Below are positions 4,247 through 14,708 of a stretch of DNA of 64,000 bases, in pieces. Origin of the DNA: an uncultured Hyphomicrobiales bacterium (GTDB lineage: Bacteria; Pseudomonadota; Alphaproteobacteria; Rhizobiales; Xanthobacteraceae); NCBI GenBank assembly GCA_964479515.1, contig CAYZMR010000001.1, forward strand, positions 6,498 through 70,497. Direction: 5' to 3'. Each line of letters starts with the position of its first letter. Position 1 is the first letter of the stretch. The notes under the pieces were generated by a model. That model was not told where the DNA came from, did no database searches, and saw only the letters and a list, made by a program, of their open reading frames with translations. Both the position numbers and the translations under genes were made by a program.

Positions 4247-5842
4247 ATGACGGTGCGTATCTGGCCCGCGCCCACCCGCCGCCGGTTGCTCGCGACCGCG
4301 GCCGCCTCAACCGCGCTCACGGGCCTCGGCGGCATCGCTAGACCTTATCTCAGCCGCGCGGCCGACCGGCCGCTTATCACCCACGGCATCCAGTCCGGCG
4401 ACGTCTCGGTTGATTCCGGCGTGGTGTGGGCGCGCGCCGACCGCCCCGCGCGCATGCTGATCGAGGTCGCGACCACCGACAGCTTCAAGGACATCCGCCG
4501 CGCCGTTTACGTGGACGCGCTGCCGGAGAGCGACTTCACCGCCAAGGCGCTGATCGAAGGCCTGCCTGCGGGACAGGACATCTTCTACCGCGTGCGCTTC
4601 CAGGATCATGCGAGCCCGACGATTCTCGGCGAGCCGATGGTCGGACGCTTCCGCACCGCGCCGGCCGACCGCCGTTCGGTCTCGTTCGTGTGGTCGGGAG
4701 ACACCATGGGACAGGGATGGGGCATCGACGAAGCGCGCGGCGGCATGCGCACCTACGCGACGATGCAGCGCAACCGGCCGGACTTCTTCATCCACTCCGG
4801 CGACACGATCTATGCCGACGGTGCGATCCAAGCCGAGCAGAAGATGCCGGACGGCGGCATCTGGAAGAGCATCGTGACCGAGGACAAGTCGAAGCCGGCA
4901 GAGACGCTGGCGGAGTTCCGCGGCAATCACAAATACAATCTGCTCGACAGGAACCTGCTGGCGTTCAACGCCGAGGTTCCGATGTTCGCGCAGTGGGACG
5001 ACCACGAGGTGACCAACAACTGGTGGCCGGGCGAGCCGCTCACCCGCGACGAGCACAAGCGCAAGAAATACGTCGATGGCAACGCGCTGGCGCTCACGGC
5101 GCGCGCGAGCCGCGCGTTCCACGAATACATGCCGATGCGCGAGCAGATCGCCGAGCCGGGCCGCGTCTACCGCAAGATCGCCTACGGGCCGCTGCTCGAC
5201 GTGTTCATGCTCGACATGCGCAGCTATCGCGGCCCGAACGGCGAGGACCTGCAGGAGACCTACGGGCCCGATGCCTACTTCCTCGGCCCGACGCAGGTGG
5301 CCTGGCTCAAGCGGGAGCTGATGGCCTCGACGGCGACCTGGAAAGTCATCGCCGCCGACATGCCGATCAGCCTGATCGTGGTCTACGACGTCGACAAGAA
5401 GTGGGGCTCCGAGGCGATCGCGCAAGGCGACGGGCCTCCGCGCGGGCGCGAGCTCGAAATCGCCGACATCCTCGCCTTCATCAAGCACGCGGGCGTGCGC
5501 AACACCGTTTGGCTGACCGCGGACGTGCACTACACGGCCGCGCATTACTACGATCCGAACAAGGCGCAGTTCCAGGATTTCGAGCCGTTCTGGGAGTTCG
5601 TGTCCGGGCCGATCCACGCCGGCACGTTCGGCCCGAACGATCTCGACAACACCTTCGGCCCGCAGATCCGTTACATGAAGGCGCCGAGCAAGGAGCAGGG
5701 ACAGAACCTGCCGCCGAGCTACGACATGCAGTTCTTCGGTCACGTCGCAATCGACGGCGCGAGCGAGGTGATGACCGTGACGCTCAAGGACTGCAACGAT
5801 ACGGCGCTGTGGTCGACCGCGCTGGAGTCGAAACTCGGCTGA
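4247..5842 (+). CDS. phoD: alkaline phosphatase D family protein (Tat-exported)
   Basis: ATG 4247 inside track ORF 3965..5842. Twin-arginine signal PTRRRLLATAAAS and PhoD-type metallophosphatase blocks (FIHSGDTIYAD, WDDHEVTNNW). Confidence 0.9.
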   Translation: MTVRIWPAPTRRRLLATAAASTALTGLGGIARPYLSRAADRPLITHGIQSGDVSVDSGVVWARADRPARMLIEVATTDSFKDIRRAVYVDALPESDFTAKALIEGLPAGQDIFYRVRFQDHASPTILGEPMVGRFRTAPADRRSVSFVWSGDTMGQGWGIDEARGGMRTYATMQRNRPDFFIHSGDTIYADGAIQAEQKMPDGGIWKSIVTEDKSKPAETLAEFRGNHKYNLLDRNLLAFNAEVPMFAQWDDHEVTNNWWPGEPLTRDEHKRKKYVDGNALALTARASRAFHEYMPMREQIAEPGRVYRKIAYGPLLDVFMLDMRSYRGPNGEDLQETYGPDAYFLGPTQVAWLKRELMASTATWKVIAADMPISLIVVYDVDKKWGSEAIAQGDGPPRGRELEIADILAFIKHAGVRNTVWLTADVHYTAAHYYDPNKAQFQDFEPFWEFVSGPIHAGTFGPNDLDNTFGPQIRYMKAPSKEQGQNLPPSYDMQFFGHVAIDGASEVMTVTLKDCNDTALWSTALESKLG

Positions 5843-5880
5843 CCGCGCCGCGCAACTCCGAGACCCCCGTCGACTTCAAC

Positions 5881-5913
5881 CCGCGAGCCCGCAAGGGCCC
5901 GCGGCTTTTTTTT
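5881..5913 (+). terminator. rho-independent terminator of phoD
   Basis: Stem ccgcgagccc / gggcccgcgg (one mismatch) with loop gcaa, followed by a T8 run. Starts 39 nt after the phoD stop. Confidence 0.6.
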
Positions 5914-5931
5914 GCGTCAGGGACCCGAAGA

Positions 5932-7614
5932 TCAGGCGGCGACTTGCTCGCCCTGTGTCTGCGGGGGCTTCGTGACCGCCATCGGTGCCGTGCGCTTCTT
6001 CGTCGAATAGTAGGACGCGTTCTGATCGCCGCGCAGCGCCTCGCGGGTGAACTGGATCAGGTGATAGCCCATGAACGCGGCCCCGAACATGCCGTCGATC
6101 TGACCATGACGCAGCGCATGCTTCGCCATCCGCCAGAATGGCTTCCGGAAATCCGACAAGAGACAGATGTAGAGCAGCACGCGGAACGCCAGCACGGCGC
6201 CGCCGCGCAGGTTGGGCCAGGTGAGCTTGCCCTTGGCCGGCGTGACCTTGCGATTGACGTAGGTCGCCTCGACCTGATGATGGAACCGCTCGAACAGCTT
6301 CTCGGGATCGTTCGCGTAGGCGATCGAACGGCGCCACATGCCGACGACCTCGTCGTGCGGGCGCAGGAACACGACATTGCTCTCGCGCGAGTCGTCGTCG
6401 AGCAGCCGGCCGTCGCGCTTGAGACGGTCCCACAACGGCGTCTTCGGCAGCGCCTGCAGCAGGTTGATCGTCAGCATCGGGATGTTGGAAAGATCGATGA
6501 AGTCCTTGAGCCGCCTCTCGGTATCCGCCGTCTCGGAATCGAGACCGAGAATGATGCCCGACGTGATCTCCAGACCGTAGCTGTTGAGAACCTTGATCGA
6601 CTCCATCATCGGAACGGCGTTGTTGTGGCCCTTCTTGATGGCGTCAAGCGCGTCGGCCTCCGGCGTTTCGATGCCGACGAACATCCCGACGAAATTCGCC
6701 TCCCGCATCAGCTCGAGGATTTCGGTCTGCTTGGCGATGTTCAGCGTCGCCTCGCAGGCGAACATTGTCGGATAGTGGTTGCGCTTCTGCCATTCGATCA
6801 GATGCGGCAACATCTCCTTGGCGGCCTTGCGATTGCCGATGAAGTTGTCGTCCACGAAGTAAAGCGTGGTCGGCGGATTCGGCTGCGCGAAGATGAAATC
6901 AAGCTCCGCGACGATCTGCTGCGGCGTCTTCATGCGCGGCTGACGGCCGTAGAGCCCGGGGATGTCGCAGAACTCGCAGGTATAGGGGCAGCCGGAGGAA
7001 AACTGCACGGTGCCGAGCAGATAGCGGCCGAACGCAACCTTTTCGTAAGCCGGGATCGGAAAGTCGGTGAGCGGCAGGCGCTGCTTGGTGTTGGCGACGA
7101 TCTGCTCGGGCGGGCGGGCCGTGCTCGCGTCGACCGCCCGGATGATCTGATCCGTGGCGTCGCCCATTTCGCCGATGTGCAGGTAGTCGTAGTCCGGATA
7201 CATCTCGGGCGAGGCCGACACCGACGGGCCGCCCAGCACCGTCACCTTGCCGGCCGCATGCGCGCGGCGCTCGATATCGCGGATCTGCTCAGCCTGGATG
7301 TGCATGCCGGTGACCAGCACCACATCGGCCCATGCGAGGTCGGCCGCGGTCGCGGGCTTGATGTTTTCGTCGATGAAGCGGACGGGCCAACTTTCCGGCA
7401 TGTAGGCGGCGATGAGCAATAGCCCTTGCGGCGGCATGAACGCTTTCACGCCGTACATCAGCTTGTAGGCGTGCTGGAACGTTCCGAACGAGGGCGTGTA
7501 TCGTGGAAAGACGCACAACACGCGCCGCTCATTCTTCACCGCCACCGGACACCGCACCGCGACCTCCGCAATCCGGCCCGCATCGTTTCGCGCTACTGGG
7601 CCACCGAAGATCAT
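5932..7614 (-). CDS. B12-binding-domain radical SAM protein with DUF4070-like C-terminal region
   Basis: In-frame ATG 7614 (alternative GTG 7545/7539) inside track ORF 5932..8409. N-terminal Rossmann-like B12-binding region (VVLVTGMHIQ), CX3CX2C = GCPYTCEFC, long helical C-terminus. Confidence 0.85.
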   Translation of the reverse strand: MIFGGPVARNDAGRIAEVAVRCPVAVKNERRVLCVFPRYTPSFGTFQHAYKLMYGVKAFMPPQGLLLIAAYMPESWPVRFIDENIKPATAADLAWADVVLVTGMHIQAEQIRDIERRAHAAGKVTVLGGPSVSASPEMYPDYDYLHIGEMGDATDQIIRAVDASTARPPEQIVANTKQRLPLTDFPIPAYEKVAFGRYLLGTVQFSSGCPYTCEFCDIPGLYGRQPRMKTPQQIVAELDFIFAQPNPPTTLYFVDDNFIGNRKAAKEMLPHLIEWQKRNHYPTMFACEATLNIAKQTEILELMREANFVGMFVGIETPEADALDAIKKGHNNAVPMMESIKVLNSYGLEITSGIILGLDSETADTERRLKDFIDLSNIPMLTINLLQALPKTPLWDRLKRDGRLLDDDSRESNVVFLRPHDEVVGMWRRSIAYANDPEKLFERFHHQVEATYVNRKVTPAKGKLTWPNLRGGAVLAFRVLLYICLLSDFRKPFWRMAKHALRHGQIDGMFGAAFMGYHLIQFTREALRGDQNASYYSTKKRTAPMAVTKPPQTQGEQVAA

Positions 7615-7704
7615 AGCCCGAAACCATGGCCGGAATTCAACGGGTATTGCGCGGCCTTCGTTGGGCGGCATAGGCTCGCGCCACAACGCGATGCTGGTGC
7701 CGGC

Positions 7705-8427
7705 TTGAACGGGTTCGCCGTCCACGCAACCTTCGACGTCCTCGCTTGGCTCGCGGCGGGCGCGGCCGGGCTGTGGGTGATGCGCTCGGGCCGCGTTGCG
7801 TTCCCGGTCCCGCAGCCGCTGCGATTCGGCTATCTCGCGGCGCTCATTTTTGGCGCCGGCCTCGGCGCCGTGCTGTTCGGCACCGCGAACCTCTGGCTGT
7901 CGGGCATGCCCGGGATCGCGCGTTCGATCGAAGGCGCGGTCGCGGGCGCGATCCTTTCGATCGAGGTCTACAAGCGCGTGGCCGGCATCACGCCGCGCAC
8001 GGGCGCGCGCTTCGCGCTGCCGTTCGCGGTCGGCGTCGCGGTCGGCCGGATCGGCTGCTTCCTCTCCGGGATGGACGACTTCACCTACGGCACGCCCACC
8101 ACGCTGCCCTGGGCGCACGACTTCGGCGACGGCATCCCGCGCCATCCGGTGCAGCTCTACGAAAGCGCCGCGATGGCGGCCTTCGCGGGCGTCTATGTCT
8201 GGCGAGTCTTGAACCGCGACCGGTTCTGGATCGACCAAGGATTCTATATCGCGCTCGCGGTCTATGGGCTGCAGCGCTTCGCCTGGGAATTCCTCAAGCC
8301 GTACGGGACGCTCGTCGGCCCGTTTACGCTGTTTCATCTGCTGTCGGCGGCGGTGTTCGCCTACGCGATCGCCATGATCGCGACCGCCCCCAAGCCAGAG
8401 AGTGTTCATGAACGCGCCTTTGCGTAA
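7705..8427 (+). CDS. prolipoprotein diacylglyceryl transferase (Lgt)-like integral membrane protein
   Basis: Inside track ORF 7426..8427. Multi-TM protein with Lgt-like blocks VGRIGCFLSG and RHPVQLYES (compare E. coli Lgt HPSQLYE). Start is uncertain: TTG 7705 keeps the first TM helix, ATG 7780 is the alternative. Confidence 0.7.
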   Translation: MNGFAVHATFDVLAWLAAGAAGLWVMRSGRVAFPVPQPLRFGYLAALIFGAGLGAVLFGTANLWLSGMPGIARSIEGAVAGAILSIEVYKRVAGITPRTGARFALPFAVGVAVGRIGCFLSGMDDFTYGTPTTLPWAHDFGDGIPRHPVQLYESAAMAAFAGVYVWRVLNRDRFWIDQGFYIALAVYGLQRFAWEFLKPYGTLVGPFTLFHLLSAAVFAYAIAMIATAPKPESVHERAFA

Positions 8428-9826
8428 GTCGCGCCCCTATATCTTCTGGGGCCAGACACAGTCTCTCTGCGAGACCTGCCTCACGCTCGTGCCGGCCAAG
8501 ATCGAAATCCACGGCAACGAGGTCTGGTACGAGAAGCGCTGCCGCCAGCACGGCGTACAGTCGACGCTGGTCTCGACCGACGCGGCCTATTGGCGCATGT
8601 GCAAGGACTACATCAAGCCGGGCGACCGCCCGCTCGCGTTCCAGAACAAGACCGAATATGGCTGCCCTTACGACTGTGGCCTCTGCCCTGACCACGAGCA
8701 GCATTCCTGCCTGGCGCTGATCGAGATCAACGAGCACTGCAATCTCACCTGCCCGGTGTGCTTTGCCGAATCCTCGCCGGCGAAATCGAAGCACCTGTCG
8801 GTCGCGACCGTGTCGCGCATGCTCGACGCGCTGGTCGCGAGCGAAGGCGAACCGGACCTGCTGCAGATTTCCGGCGGCGAGCCGACCTTGCATCCGGACT
8901 TCTTCGACATTCTCGACGCGGCGCGCGCGCGGCCGATCCGCCACGTGATGATCAACACCAACGGCCTGCGCATCGCGCGCGAGCCGGATTTCGTCGCGCA
9001 GCTCGCCGAGCGCAAGCGCGGGCTGGAGATCTATCTGCAATTCGACTCGCTGCAACGCGACGCGCTGATGAACCTGCGCGGCGCCGACCTGCGGCGCGTG
9101 CGCCACGACGCGCTGCAAAACCTAGAACGGCACGGCATCTCGACGACGTTGGTCGTCACCGTAAAGCGCGGCGTCAACGAGGCCGAGATCGGCGCCATCG
9201 TGCGCCATGCGCTGCAGTGGCGTTGCGTGCGCGGCGTGACCTTCCAGCCGGTGCAGGATACCGGCCGCAACGAGAACTTCGATGCGAAACGCGACCGCGT
9301 GCTGCTCTCCGACATCCGCCGCGCCGTGATCGAGGACTCCGACGTGTTCGGCGCCGGCGACATGATCCCGCTCCCGTGCAATCCCGAGCAGATCTCGATC
9401 GCCTACGGCCTGCGCAGCGGCGCGTCGGTGCTGCCGGTCACCTCGATGGTGTCGCGCGAAGAGCTCGTCTCCGTGATGCCGAACACGATCAATTTCGAGA
9501 AGCAGCCGATCCTGCGCGAGAAGTTCATCGAACTGTTCTCGCTCTCGTCCGGCCCGAACAATTCCGCCGAGCGCTTGCATGAATTCCTGTGCTGCCTGCC
9601 GAAGGTGCAGGCGCCGGCGGCGCTCTCCTACGACAACGTGTTCCGCGTCGCGATCGTGCAGTTCATGGACCGCTTCAATTTCTGCGTCGGCGGCGTGAAG
9701 CGCTCCTGCATCCACTTCGTGACGCCGAACGGGCAGATCATTCCGTTCGACACCTTCAACCTGTTCTACCGCGACGGCCGCATCGACAAGATCCGCGCCG
9801 CGATCAAGGCCGAGGCAACCGCATGA
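8402..9826 (+). CDS. radical SAM protein with N-terminal Cys-rich zinc-ribbon/auxiliary-cluster region (MJ0619 / tetraether-synthase-like architecture)
   Basis: 474-aa ORF starting at GTG 8402 or ATG 8408. Motifs: CETC...CRQH, CPYDCGLCPDHEQHSC, canonical CNLTCPVC, ISGGEPTLH, and C-terminal CIHFVTPNGQIIPFDTFN. Overlaps the Lgt-like gene by 20-26 nt. Confidence 0.85.
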   Translation: MFMNAPLRKSRPYIFWGQTQSLCETCLTLVPAKIEIHGNEVWYEKRCRQHGVQSTLVSTDAAYWRMCKDYIKPGDRPLAFQNKTEYGCPYDCGLCPDHEQHSCLALIEINEHCNLTCPVCFAESSPAKSKHLSVATVSRMLDALVASEGEPDLLQISGGEPTLHPDFFDILDAARARPIRHVMINTNGLRIAREPDFVAQLAERKRGLEIYLQFDSLQRDALMNLRGADLRRVRHDALQNLERHGISTTLVVTVKRGVNEAEIGAIVRHALQWRCVRGVTFQPVQDTGRNENFDAKRDRVLLSDIRRAVIEDSDVFGAGDMIPLPCNPEQISIAYGLRSGASVLPVTSMVSREELVSVMPNTINFEKQPILREKFIELFSLSSGPNNSAERLHEFLCCLPKVQAPAALSYDNVFRVAIVQFMDRFNFCVGGVKRSCIHFVTPNGQIIPFDTFNLFYRDGRIDKIRAAIKAEATA

Positions 9827-10089
9827 GCGAGCCGAACAGTCCGACACCGCGTCCGCCGGGCCCTTCGGGCGGTCAGGTTGCGATGATCGTCGTCGGCGTG
9901 ATCCTGCTGCTGCCGGGCCTGTGCTCGCTTCTGCTTCTCATCGGCGCGCTACCGGAGCTCCATGGGAGCACGCTCTCCGATCCGATCTCGCAGATGATCT
10001 TCCTGCTCTGGGGCGTCTGCTTTGCGGTCTCGGCCTTCGGCATCGTGCTGATCGTGATGGCGCGCCGGCGCGCGCAAAGGCCGCCATGA
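9823..10089 (+). CDS. small two-TM membrane protein (88 aa), hypothetical
   Basis: ATG 9823 inside track ORF 9589..10089, with an ATGA overlap on the radical SAM stop. Pro-rich N-terminus, two hydrophobic helices, basic C-terminus. Confidence 0.6.
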   Translation: MSEPNSPTPRPPGPSGGQVAMIVVGVILLLPGLCSLLLLIGALPELHGSTLSDPISQMIFLLWGVCFAVSAFGIVLIVMARRRAQRPP

Positions 10090-10189
10090 GCGTGCCCGGC
10101 AGCCTGATGTTGATACGGCGGCCCGCGCGCCGTTAAGCCAAGCGCCGTAAAACGCCAGCCTACGGATTGCCATCCGGCCGCCGATGACT

Positions 10190-10206
10190 ATATTGCGGTG
10201 CAATAT
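10190..10206. promoter_or_regulatory. perfect 7-3-7 palindrome upstream of typA (operator-like)
   Basis: ATATTGC-GGT-GCAATAT, ending 41 nt upstream of the typA ATG. Confidence 0.3.
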
Positions 10207-10246
10207 CGATCCGCTTTGCGGCGGCCATACACCCCCGGAACCACAC

Positions 10247-12073
10247 ATGAATCTTCGAAACGTGGCGATCATCGCCCACGTCGACCATGGCAAGACCACG
10301 CTGGTCGACCGCTTGCTGCAGCAATCCGGCTCGTTCCGGGAGAACCAGCGCGTCGCGGAGCGCGCGATGGATTCCAACGATTTGGAGCGCGAGCGCGGCA
10401 TCACGATCCTCGCCAAGGCGACCTCGATCCAGTGGGGTGAAACGCGCATCAACATCGTCGACACGCCCGGCCACGCCGATTTCGGCGGCGAAGTGGAGCG
10501 CATCCTCGGCATGGTGGATGGCGCGCTCGTGCTGGTCGATGCCGCCGAGGGACCGCTGCCGCAGACCAAGTTCGTGGTGTCCAAGGCCCTCAAGCTCGGC
10601 CTCAAGCCGATCGTGATCATCAACAAGGTCGACCGCTCGGACGCCCGCCCCAACGAGGTCGCCGGCGAAGTGTTCGACCTGTTCGCCGCGCTCGATGCGA
10701 CCGAGGAACAGCTCGACTTCCCGATTCTCTATGGCTCCGCCAAGCAAGGCTGGATGGCCGACAGCCCGGAGGGCCCGAACGACAAGGGCATGAAGCCGCT
10801 GTTCGACCTGGTGCTGCGCCATGTGCCGGCGCCCAAGGTGGAAGACGGGCCGTTCCGCATGCTCGGCACCATCCTGGAGGCCAATCCCTATCTCGGCCGC
10901 ATCGTCACCGGCCGCATTTTCTCCGGCTCGGTGAAGCCGAACCAGGCCGCCAAGGTGCTCGACCGGAGCGGCAAGCTGGTCGAGCAGGGCCGCGTCTCGA
11001 AGGTGCTGGCATTCCGCGGGTTGGAGCGGCTCGCGCTCGAGGAGGCGTTCGCGGGCGACATCGTGTCGATCGCTGGCTTCCCGGAGGCGACGGTGGCGCA
11101 CACCATCTGCGCGCCCGAGGTCGAGGTCCCGCTGCCGGCGCAGCCGATCGACCCGCCGACGCTCGCGATGACGTTCCGCGTCAACGATTCGCCGCTCGCC
11201 GGCACCGAAGGCACCAAGGTGACGAGCCGCATGATCCGCGACCGCCTGCTGCGCGAGGCCGAAGGCAACGTGGCCTTGCGCGTCTCGGCGTCCGGCGAGA
11301 ACGACGCCATGGAGGTCGCGGGCCGCGGCGAATTGCAGCTCGGCATCCTGATCGAGACGATGCGGCGCGAAGGCTTCGAGCTCTCCGTGTCGCGTCCGAA
11401 GGTGCTGCTGCGCCGCAGCGACGCGGGCGAGCTGGAAGAGCCGATCGAAGAGGTCGTCATCGACGTCGACGAGGAGCATTCGGGTGTCGTCGTGCAGAAG
11501 ATGTCGGAGCGCAAGGCCGAGCTGGTCGAGATGCGCGCCTCCGGCGGCCATCGCACGCGGCTTGTCTTCTTCGCACCGACGCGCGGCCTGATCGGCTACC
11601 AGGGCGAGTTGCTCACCGATACGCGCGGCACCGCGATCATGAACCGCCTGTTCCACGCTTACGCGCCCTACAAGGGCGACATCCAGGGCCGCCGGAACGG
11701 CGTCTTGATCTCCAACGAGCAGGGCGAGGCCGTCGCCTATGCGATGTGGAAGCTCGAAGACCGCGGCCCGATGATGATCGAGCCGGGCTGGAAGGTCTAT
11801 CGCGGCATGATCGTCGGCGAGCACACGCGCGACAACGATCTCGAGATCAATGTCCTCAAGGGCAAGCAGCTCACCAATATCCGCACGACCTCGAAGGACG
11901 AGGCGGTACGCCTGACCCCGCCGATCCGCATGACGTTGGAGAAGGCGCTCGCCTATATCGGCGACGATGAGCTGGTCGAGATCACGCCGAAGTCGATCCG
12001 GCTGCGCAAGCGACTGCTCGATCCGAACGAACGCAAGCGCGCCGAGCGCGTCAAGGAAGCCGAGAGCGTGTGA
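10247..12073 (+). CDS. typA: translational GTPase TypA/BipA
   Basis: ATG 10247 inside track ORF 10184..12073. MNLRNVAIIAHVDHGKTTLVD, DTPGHADFGGEVER and NKVDR G-motifs with full-length BipA architecture. Confidence 0.95.
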   Translation: MNLRNVAIIAHVDHGKTTLVDRLLQQSGSFRENQRVAERAMDSNDLERERGITILAKATSIQWGETRINIVDTPGHADFGGEVERILGMVDGALVLVDAAEGPLPQTKFVVSKALKLGLKPIVIINKVDRSDARPNEVAGEVFDLFAALDATEEQLDFPILYGSAKQGWMADSPEGPNDKGMKPLFDLVLRHVPAPKVEDGPFRMLGTILEANPYLGRIVTGRIFSGSVKPNQAAKVLDRSGKLVEQGRVSKVLAFRGLERLALEEAFAGDIVSIAGFPEATVAHTICAPEVEVPLPAQPIDPPTLAMTFRVNDSPLAGTEGTKVTSRMIRDRLLREAEGNVALRVSASGENDAMEVAGRGELQLGILIETMRREGFELSVSRPKVLLRRSDAGELEEPIEEVVIDVDEEHSGVVVQKMSERKAELVEMRASGGHRTRLVFFAPTRGLIGYQGELLTDTRGTAIMNRLFHAYAPYKGDIQGRRNGVLISNEQGEAVAYAMWKLEDRGPMMIEPGWKVYRGMIVGEHTRDNDLEINVLKGKQLTNIRTTSKDEAVRLTPPIRMTLEKALAYIGDDELVEITPKSIRLRKRLLDPNERKRAERVKEAESV

Positions 12074-14632: not shown

Positions 14633-14708
14633 GGGGCCATAGCTCAGCTGGGAGAGCGCCTCGTTCGCAATGAGGAGGTCGGCGGTTCGATCCCGCCTGG
14701 CTCCACCA
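14633..14708 (+). tRNA. tRNA-Ala: tRNA-Ala (anticodon CGC), CCA encoded
   Basis: Manual cloverleaf: acceptor GGGGCCA/TGGCTCC with the G3:U70 Ala identity pair, D-arm GCTC/GAGC, anticodon stem CCTCG/TGAGG with loop TTCGCAA, T-arm GGCGG-TTCGATC-CCGCC, 3' CCA. Confidence 0.95.

Follow-up and report, generated by a model that had tools for sequence, protein, structure and literature searches.

Which reaction could unite, in an alphaproteobacterium, a relative of the lipoprotein diacylglyceryl transferase Lgt, a radical S-adenosylmethionine (radical-SAM) enzyme resembling the archaeal tetraether lipid synthase Tes (GDGT-MAS), and a small membrane protein encoded directly behind them? The question is raised by positions 7705-10089 of a stretch of 64,000 nucleotides from an uncultured Hyphomicrobiales bacterium of the Xanthobacteraceae (contig CAYZMR010000001.1; this whole 64-kb stretch is called the window below). 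Our data reveal that this region is a self-contained three-gene membrane cassette, and that the adjacent B12-binding radical-SAM gene stands outside the unit. The explanation we favour, tentatively and with a little less than an even chance of being right, is that the small proteins are substrates, that the Lgt paralogue lipidates their cysteine and that the Tes-like enzyme carries out radical chemistry on the lipid tail. The region was re-read by listing of open reading frames (ORFs), translation and script, and the products were compared with Pfam, NCBIfam and PDB and by Foldseek. The features of the cassette are:

7705 (TTG)-8427, + strand: Lgt-like membrane transferase, 240 amino acids (aa), identified by Pfam LGT, a profile match to PDB 5AZB and an AlphaFold2 model
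8056-8058, + strand: codon (TGC) for Cys118 of the Lgt-like protein, an invariant cysteine at an active-site position that sets the paralogue family apart from canonical Lgt
8408 (ATG)-9826, + strand: Tes/GDGT-MAS-like radical-SAM enzyme, 472 aa (474 aa if read from GTG 8402)
9823-10089, + strand: small two-transmembrane membrane protein of type A, 88 aa, with two hydrophobic segments
9922-9924, + strand: codon (TGC) for Cys34 of the small protein, context LLLPGLC

The TTG start at 7705 is backed by homologues of 240-241 aa. The radical-SAM gene overlaps the Lgt-like gene by 20 nt when it begins at ATG 8408, or by 26 nt when it begins at GTG 8402, and its stop is overlapped by the ATG of the small ORF (9823) in an ATGA. 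These overlaps, the ATGA coupling, the coordinates and a divergent spacer of 90 bp had been reported in an earlier note on this DNA and are all present in the sequence, as are the motifs quoted there (CETC...CRQH, CPYDCGLCPDHEQHSC, CNLTCPVC, GGEP, CIHF..PNGQIIPFDTFN and HPVQLYE). Its domain calls also stand, since LGT, Radical_SAM, B12-binding and DUF4070 all score above the Pfam gathering thresholds. The small ORF had been treated as incidental; in our analysis it is the most informative part of the locus.

A scan of one genome per species yielded 80 loci with enzymes at least 49% identical to the radical-SAM enzyme of the window; the top-match lists are biased towards soil metagenomes, and genes in the fetched loci were called mechanically, as ORFs. 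The Lgt-like gene adjoins the radical-SAM gene, usually overlapping it, in 68 of these 80 loci, and eight of the 12 loci without an adjacent Lgt-like gene are contig ends. At least nine phyla are covered, including Alpha-, Beta- and Gammaproteobacteria, Bacillota (Neobacillus, Niallia, Paenibacillus, Cohnella, Fictibacillus and Heyndrickxia), Cyanobacteriota (Fischerella), Melainabacteria, Planctomycetota, Acidobacteriota, Gemmatimonadota and Actinomycetota. Because the adjacency recurs in so many loci from so many phyla, the Lgt-like/radical-SAM arrangement is far beyond chance. All-vs-all clustering of the flanking ORFs of the 80 loci revealed no further gene conserved across phyla. The trio of Lgt-like gene, radical-SAM gene and small ORF, on which the earlier proposal of a tailoring module depended, is syntenic across phyla; at 7705-10089 all three parts of the proposed cassette are linked, and the small protein bears the family-invariant cysteine. 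Nature has even joined the two enzymes in LGT-Zn_ribbon-Radical_SAM fusion proteins, P0244 (733 aa) and P0340 (671 aa), both metagenomic. The C-terminus of E. coli Lgt is cytoplasmic, and a fusion at this end would therefore place the Fe-S enzyme on the cytoplasmic face, as required.

The two fusion loci also encode a Cys-rich polytopic membrane protein with a C-x5-C-x2-C-x7-C motif (L162:3-806 and L163:4686-6065; 39% identical to each other), which in L163 is fused to a rhodanese domain and which is absent from the window and all other loci. Seven Betaproteobacteria loci (L075:5078-6973 and six others; ORF cluster 42) possess a 632-aa fusion of MFS and acyltransferase domains, whose gene closely precedes the small ORFs and the Lgt-like gene. 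We take this protein to be of the LplT/PlsC-like lysophospholipid transporter-acyltransferase type; such a neighbour may serve the recycling of a lysolipid by-product, or its position may reflect lineage synteny alone. In Neobacillus soli (L081:7258-7917) a 219-aa protein without a Pfam family and a MerR-type regulator precede the cassette.

The small membrane proteins were counted with a heuristic detector, which accepted ORFs on the same strand and within 1.2 kb that are 45-160 aa long, with at least two hydrophobic segments and [GAS]-x(0,1)-Cys inside a segment. At least one such ORF (one to three per locus) is present in 52 of the 63 loci with adequate flanks, whereas the controls gave none in 63 for the opposite strand and 7 of 48 for stretches 3 kb away. 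Several of the 11 misses have one by eye: the count overlooks L018, L019, L052, L054 and L066. The small genes lie directly downstream of the radical-SAM gene, often with an ATGA overlap, in most Alphaproteobacteria, upstream of the Lgt-like gene in Betaproteobacteria, and between both enzyme genes in L015, L043, L044 and L077. Their copy number is one to three per locus and rises to six in the distant locus L167. Variable position and variable copy number are the behaviour of precursor or substrate genes, and it is for this reason that we call the small genes precursor-like.

Two types of small protein can be distinguished. Type A, the kind found in the window, has two transmembrane (TM) segments, sometimes four, and a G-[L/G/I/A]-C motif in TM1, whereas type B, known from Bacillota, cyanobacteria, an actinobacterium and some Gammaproteobacteria, has three TM segments and L-L-N-[AG]-[AGS]-C-[FYW] in the last one. 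In the type-A alignment (A4; 33 sequences with a mean identity of 22%) Met1 and Cys34 are the only invariant columns, and in the type-B alignment (17 sequences, 28% mean identity) Met1 and one cysteine are again all that is invariant. In both types a median of 19 uncharged residues separates the invariant cysteine from the last charged residue before it, and 8-10 apolar residues come behind it. Glycine occupies its -2 position in 28 of 33 type-A sequences, and 16 of 17 type-B sequences read [AGST][AGST]C. From these features and the positive-inside rule we infer that an in-to-out helix carries the invariant cysteine close to the helix's outer end, as deep as the lipobox cysteine of a lipoprotein signal peptide and on the predicted side of the Lgt-type residues. 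An identity of the small ORF as a holin was rejected (Pfam 17.5 bits, with a cut-off of 28.4).

The 472-aa enzyme scores above the gathering thresholds of Pfam Zn_ribbon_HMPTM (59.6 bits) and Radical_SAM (73.3 bits), and is laid out as a rubredoxin-like Zn ribbon, an N-terminal auxiliary cluster motif, a CX3CX2C core and a C-terminal Cys set. The resemblance to the archaeal MJ0619-type architecture, suspected from the letters alone, is borne out by structure comparison. The homology to GDGT-MAS/Tes (MJ0619; PDB 7TOL/7TOM) is full-length, with a common four-domain layout, and 7TOL is matched with E=3e-61. A Foldseek search with the predicted model, which is of low confidence (AlphaFold pLDDT 59.5, close homologues only as input) and was used for the global fold match only, recovered 7TOL with E=1.7e-25 and TMq 0.67 over 491 columns, that is, the whole length; the runner-up (1e-8) is 17 orders of magnitude weaker. 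Fourteen cysteines are invariant among 80 clade members: 21, 24, 45, 86, 90, 93, 101, 111, 115, 118, 324, 395, 396 and 434. Those of the CX3CX2C radical-SAM cluster are C111/C115/C118, and the rubredoxin-like CX2C...CX2H site (C21/C24/C45/H48) and the N-terminal cluster ligands (C86/C90/C93/H96) are invariant including their histidines, with ligands assigned after the GDGT-MAS structure paper (PMC9433317).

The window enzyme and GDGT-MAS also have in common a conserved C-terminal block, ...CIH..P.G..IPF..(Y/F)N. The remainder of the C-terminal region differs: the invariant set 324, 395, 396 and 434 of the window clade departs from that of GDGT-MAS, and Cys438/Met439 of GDGT-MAS correspond to Gln418/Phe419, a comparison that covers the Met439 region of [4Fe-4S]C only. 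Cys101, which lies just past the N-terminal cluster motif, and the Cys-Cys pair 395/396 have no Cys counterpart in the HMMER-aligned parts of GDGT-MAS. Their presence suggests a rebuilt auxiliary cluster in the bacterial clade.

Neither curated NCBIfam model of this superfamily is reached by the window enzyme, which scores 265.4 bits with Tes (NF045702; cut-off 450) and 305.1 bits with TrsS (NF045646; cut-off 490), the latter being the best-scoring model. TrsS belongs to the same superfamily and has the same length, but a true member, P0385, scores 652 bits, is fused to DUF5714 and lies beside cbiM/N/Z and a DUF7479 protein without an LGT gene. Membership in TrsS was rejected on account of both the score and the gene context. 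True TrsS loci have a cobalamin or metal context: L171:1408-8789 and L172 encode TrsS-DUF5714, a 64-aa DUF7479 protein, cbiM/cbiN/cbiZ and an ABC transporter with a periplasmic binding protein. As its scores fall below both curated cut-offs and its C-terminal cysteines differ, the window enzyme belongs to a third, uncurated branch of the Tes/TrsS superfamily. Public names of homologues with about 80-90% identity conflict (e.g. P0009, P0017 and P0026), and include 'tetraether lipid synthase', '7,8-dihydro-6-hydroxymethylpterin dimethyltransferase' and 'uncharacterized radical SAM'. By the curated cut-offs the first two are over-annotations, and neither is justified. A role in defence was likewise rejected, for PADLOC shows merely a generic, viperin-level radical-SAM similarity.

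The earlier identification of the first gene as Lgt-like is supported. The 240-aa protein is a true paralogue of the Lgt fold and possesses the HPVQLYE signature: Pfam LGT is matched with 67.4 bits (threshold 24.9) over profile positions 52-239, and the AlphaFold2 model (pLDDT 87.8) has seven long helices, in accordance with seven predicted TM segments, and finds E. coli Lgt (5AZB) as its sole significant PDB fold match (Foldseek probability 1.0, TMq 0.61). A single-sequence phmmer search against PDB gave no match, and the family profile was required to find 5AZB (E=4e-12), with 'GRiGCflaG' aligned to 'GRLGNFING'. Both Lgt equivalogs are missed by a wide distance (TIGR00544, 20.7 vs 118.9 bits; NF000775, 38 vs 428 bits). 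As far as the profile alignment on which all residue equivalences rest can tell, the counterparts of E. coli Lgt R143, H196 (RHPxQLYE), Y235, R239 and E243 are invariant in the family; R115, R191 and R146-H147-P148...Y152-E153 are invariant and aligned to 5AZB, including the phosphate-binding Arg143/Arg239. The roles of the E. coli residues and the topology of Lgt are taken from the literature. The invariant Cys118 (GRIGCF; alignments A3 and A5) stands where E. coli Lgt has Asn146. Its equivalent is also found in the fusions P0244 and P0340, both of which bear the GC signature, as well as in LGT paralogues of the distant loci L165, L167 and L168. The position of Lgt His103 is variable, with Glu in the window and Val/Leu elsewhere.

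Lgt of E. coli (PF01790) and the window paralogue have in common the seven-TM fold, the predicted periplasm-facing active site and the predicted cytoplasmic C-terminus. In contrast, the periplasmic head domain of Lgt is about twice as long, and H7, E87, K90, D125 and D142 are invariant in the paralogue family and new relative to Lgt. Unlike Lgt, the paralogue comes with dedicated small membrane proteins and has no housekeeping role, as close relatives lack the cassette. The 240-aa protein belongs to a distinct Lgt paralogue family, other than the housekeeping enzyme.

Gene contexts were also read for representatives whose radical-SAM enzyme is only 29-38% identical to that of the window. At L167:2021-4968 the Tes-like gene is preceded by a tandem run of genes for six paralogous small proteins (82-182 aa). 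They combine a zinc ribbon at the N-terminus (MKxWKCxCG...C..CG) with TM segments and, at the C-terminus, a motif of the LFFGAC type; most copies end with G-[AS]-C in the last TM segment, and one copy is without Cys. This is the arrangement of a precursor array. Behind these six genes come the one for the Tes-like radical-SAM enzyme and those for an ICMT/PEMT-family membrane methyltransferase, DUF4395 and an LGT paralogue (RIGCF); an alpha/beta-hydrolase/peptidase-S9-like gene is an addition of L167. The Tes-like/ICMT-PEMT/DUF4395/LGT operon of these branches (33-34% identity) is located at:

L167:6364-9086
L168:6406-8215
L169:3601-5410

L168 and L169 encode with it a single small protein ending ...LLFGFCMFMINF, and upstream of the fusion P0340 there is a zinc-ribbon/TM protein with ...AAFC.... 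Since it is kept in distant branches, the association of a Cys-variant Lgt, a Tes-like enzyme and small Cys membrane proteins is old. Other distant neighbourhoods have another composition. In L165, LGT paralogues and B12 radical-SAM genes are each present twice, alongside a GT2 glycosyltransferase and a methyltransferase; L166 and L173 contain B12 as well as SPASM radical-SAM genes, and FabA/KS genes occur in the neighbourhood of the Tes-like gene of L170. At L173:4405-11446 a Tes-like gene of 33% identity has an ICMT/PEMT gene and a cysteine desulfurase-rhodanese fusion at its flanks, with the SPASM radical-SAM gene and a B12/DUF4070 radical-SAM gene nearby and no LGT gene, and the cluster resembles published bacterial tes-gms clusters.

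The distant operons invite a comparison with the eukaryotic CaaX processing, in which a cysteine is S-prenylated, the -aaX residues are cleaved and ICMT methylates the carboxyl group, although this is an analogy only. The invariant cysteine of type-B and Zn-ribbon small proteins lies 6-12 apolar residues from the C-terminus, the distant branches have the ICMT/PEMT-family methyltransferase, and L167 adds the hydrolase/peptidase-like gene. However, the cassette has no prenyltransferase, the lipid would instead be provided by the Lgt-type transferase, and in the window there is no methyltransferase and the cysteine is situated in TM1.

If the two-TM small protein serves as substrate, or is at any rate an obligate partner, the following course of events can be envisaged. 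The Lgt paralogue, with its Arg pair and RHPxQLYE on the predicted periplasmic side, would transfer a glycerolipid group, most simply diacylglyceryl from phosphatidylglycerol, onto the thiol of Cys34. The cytoplasmic Tes-like enzyme, coupled to the cytoplasmic C-terminus of the Lgt-like protein, would abstract a hydrogen from a lipid hydrocarbon tail, either of the lipid donor or of the attached lipid, and form a new bond, which may be a C-C coupling of tails as in GDGT-MAS or a C-S bond. Gene linkage, fusion, folds, conserved catalytic residues, the precursor-like behaviour of the small genes and the invariant cysteine with its depth are observed here; the lipidation of Cys34, the identity of the lipid, the role of the radical-SAM step and the bond made are inferred. 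Of the two alternatives left by the earlier note, a non-canonical lipoprotein modification has the better support, and C-C coupling or methylation of membrane lipids has less.

Several observations weigh against this explanation. The main difficulty is the spatial link of the steps, as the Lgt-type site and the target cysteine are periplasmic and the radical-SAM enzyme is cytoplasmic; this topology was itself deduced from the positive-inside rule and the homology to E. coli Lgt. Most type-A motifs (G-L-C) are non-canonical lipoboxes. Cys118 in place of Asn146, the lost His103 and the short head domain mean that the reaction may be other than a transfer of diacylglyceryl. No Lgt-like gene is nearby in L051, L071, L074 and L076, four loci whose flanks are adequate. 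In the distant branches the methyltransferase scores equally as ICMT and PEMT, which does not discriminate between a protein-Cys and a phospholipid substrate, and the cluster of L165, which has no called small ORF, is more suggestive of a lipid pathway.

A more far-reaching version, possible but already doubtful in our estimation, is that the cassette constitutes a second bacterial route of protein lipidation, independent of Lgt-Lsp-Lnt, in which an Lgt paralogue with an active-site cysteine puts a glycerolipid on Cys and a Tes-like enzyme then welds the tails. The tails would be welded (C-C or C-S) to one another, or else to a lipid in the opposite leaflet, and the product would be a stapled or membrane-spanning protein-lipid conjugate. 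Against both versions stands an explanation without any protein substrate, which we regard as unlikely but worth serious attention: the Lgt-like protein would bind or present phosphatidylglycerol or another glycerolipid, the Tes-like enzyme would couple acyl tails, and a free macrocyclic or membrane-spanning lipid of the branched glycerol dialkyl glycerol tetraether (brGDGT) or diabolic-acid type would result, the small protein being merely a subunit or anchor. The closest characterised homologue is indeed a lipid tail-coupling enzyme that also binds E. coli phospholipids, bacterial Tes homologues have repeatedly been proposed as brGDGT synthases, a PEMT-type methyltransferase could work on lipids, and the distant clusters L165/L166 (B12 radical SAM, GT2 glycosyltransferase, methyltransferases) and L170 (FabA/KS) are lipid-like. 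Yet a lipid synthase leaves unexplained why two unrelated small-protein architectures retain a single invariant cysteine and why their genes are multi-copy and variable in position, and conservation is absent at the GDGT-MAS Cys438/Met439 positions, of which the Met is the labile ligand of the C-terminal cluster. The hosts argue against it as well: they include Bradyrhizobium, Sphingomonas, Neobacillus, Paenibacillus and Fischerella, and we know of no report of membrane-spanning lipids from these genera. Sahonero-Canavesi et al. 2022 detected no Tes homologues in the screened producers of diabolic/iso-diabolic acid outside Acidobacteria (none of those tested), and 3 of 14 acidobacterial producers were positive. 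The lack of Tes homologues in known producers of membrane-spanning lipids (published surveys, PMC13159169) fits a product other than a bulk lipid.

The precursor-like small genes, with their tandem copies, variable position and one invariant cysteine, would also suit a maturation like that of RiPPs (peptides made by ribosomes and modified after translation), in which the radical-SAM enzyme modifies the small protein directly, e.g. by a thioether or other cross-link at the invariant cysteine, and the Lgt-like protein is a membrane scaffold, recognition subunit or processing enzyme without lipid transfer. Many radical-SAM enzymes with auxiliary clusters make Cys-derived thioethers, and SkfB and sactipeptide synthases are the structural neighbours after GDGT-MAS, at the level of the radical-SAM core only. 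We nevertheless consider this improbable: the cysteine is predicted near the outer leaflet, away from the cytoplasmic Fe-S enzyme, the enzyme is not of the SPASM/twitch type and has the whole four-domain GDGT-MAS architecture including the lipid-pocket region, and the strictly conserved catalytic residues of the Lgt-like protein argue for an active enzyme. Least credible of all, with hardly any probability left to it, is that the radical-SAM protein is the 7,8-dihydro-6-hydroxymethylpterin dimethyltransferase of methanopterin synthesis. Several close homologues are so named by JGI, and the N-terminal Pfam domain is named after HMPTM. However, the pterin assignment of MJ0619 is, according to PMC9433317, irreproducible and has been replaced by GDGT-MAS on structural and enzymatic grounds, and an obligate Lgt-like partner and membrane-protein partners are foreign to pterin chemistry.

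The lipidation of small membrane proteins, if it is the function of the cassette, would bear on a group of enzymes that has been discussed since the discovery of Tes. A count of 456 bacterial Tes homologues, some of them proteobacterial, was given by Zeng et al. 2022, who proposed a role in brGDGT synthesis; Lloyd et al. 2022 (PMC9433317) found homologues in bacteria that make no biphytanyl chains and called for a study of their reactions. According to both discovery papers (PMC8941075, PMC9433317), there are hundreds of bacterial homologues in organisms that do not make tetraethers; their function was left open there. Later literature still describes them as functionally uncharacterised, and environmental studies employ them as markers of brGDGT producers. 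The brGDGTs are key palaeoclimate proxies. A functional analogue of Tes, the radical-SAM enzyme Mss of Thermotoga and Clostridia, is proposed to couple bacterial acyl tails; it is described as only remotely related to Tes and comes from anaerobes, and differs from the window enzyme by this description rather than by sequence comparison. Neither an Lgt paralogue nor small Cys proteins have been reported with Mss, and for archaeal Tes a linkage or fusion to such partners is likewise undescribed, whereas the cassette hosts are bacteria with ester lipids. The literature searched contains no description of the Lgt-like/radical-SAM pairing or its small proteins, in agreement with the earlier statement that no characterised example was known. 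What is new is the combination of the Lgt and Tes families, which is undescribed and widely conserved.

In this combination a large, cross-phylum branch of bacterial Tes homologues is locked to an Lgt paralogue as well as to small membrane proteins that have one invariant cysteine, and the open function of these homologues becomes testable. If the lipidation reading is true, bacterial protein lipidation would gain a new type and the C(sp3) radical chemistry of Tes a new use, and caution would be advised in deducing brGDGT production from Tes matches. Should the cassette represent a second lipidation route, most 'bacterial Tes homologues' counted as brGDGT markers would not be synthases of free lipids. 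If on the other hand it is a lipid synthase, aerobic soil bacteria such as Bradyrhizobium, Sphingomonas and Neobacillus would be unsuspected makers of lipids with coupled tails.

The gene across the spacer had been regarded as half of a divergent radical-SAM pair, a view that does not hold when related loci are compared. The features concerned are:

5932-7614, - strand: B12-binding radical-SAM/DUF4070 gene, 560 aa (ATG; alternative starts 7671 and 7539)
7615-7704: spacer of 90 bp between the divergent B12 radical-SAM gene and the cassette
7518-10252: segment present in the window but not in the cassette-less relatives L083, L084, L092 and L129 (blastn)

The product scores above the Pfam gathering thresholds for B12-binding (36.8 bits), Radical_SAM (55.6) and DUF4070 (84.8), and reaches no NCBIfam equivalog (HpnJ, 68 vs 578 bits; PhpK family, 70 vs 600). 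Among the 80 cassette loci it is adjacent in one, the closest relative L001, and is found 7 kb off in L003; the other 78 neighbourhoods lack it. In Bradyrhizobium the order is PhoD, cassette and typA, without the B12 gene. Conversely, a reciprocal metagenome scan for orthologues at least 62% identical to the B12 protein found 23 loci directly beside typA with no cassette, and 17 in which the cassette lies between the B12 gene and typA. Given these 23 and 17 orthologous loci the two are separable units, and the cassette and the B12 gene occupy a common chromosomal site independently of each other. In close relatives the whole cassette is a presence/absence polymorphism between B12 gene and typA, and the homology blocks on either side are about 280 bp apart in the cassette-less relatives compared with 2,736 bp in the window. 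Neither direct or inverted repeats flanking the cassette nor mobility genes were found.

A four-gene module, in which the divergent B12/DUF4070 enzyme works with the cassette, e.g. by methylating or cyclising the same lipid, is in our opinion distinctly improbable. Its basis is the adjacent and divergent position of the gene in the window, in L001 and in the 17 metagenomic loci, the B12 radical-SAM genes (one of DUF4070 type) near Tes-like genes in L165, L166 and L173, and the modification of archaeal GDGTs by B12 radical-SAM enzymes. It is contradicted by the 23 orthologous B12 loci at typA without cassette and by the Bradyrhizobium cassette at the same site without B12 gene, and the B12 protein of the window shares just 22% identity with those of L165 and L166. 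On the strength of the loose association that recurs between B12 radical-SAM and Tes-like genes in these three distant loci, we leave a slim chance to an accessory role of the gene.

A scan of 5700-10400 for promoters and terminators detected no consensus sigma-70 promoter in the 90-bp spacer. The region is flanked by a gene for a PhoD-like phosphatase (ending at 5842) and by typA/bipA (from about 10184). The sole tRNA gene of the 64-kb window, a tRNA-Ala with anticodon CGC, lies at 14633-14708.

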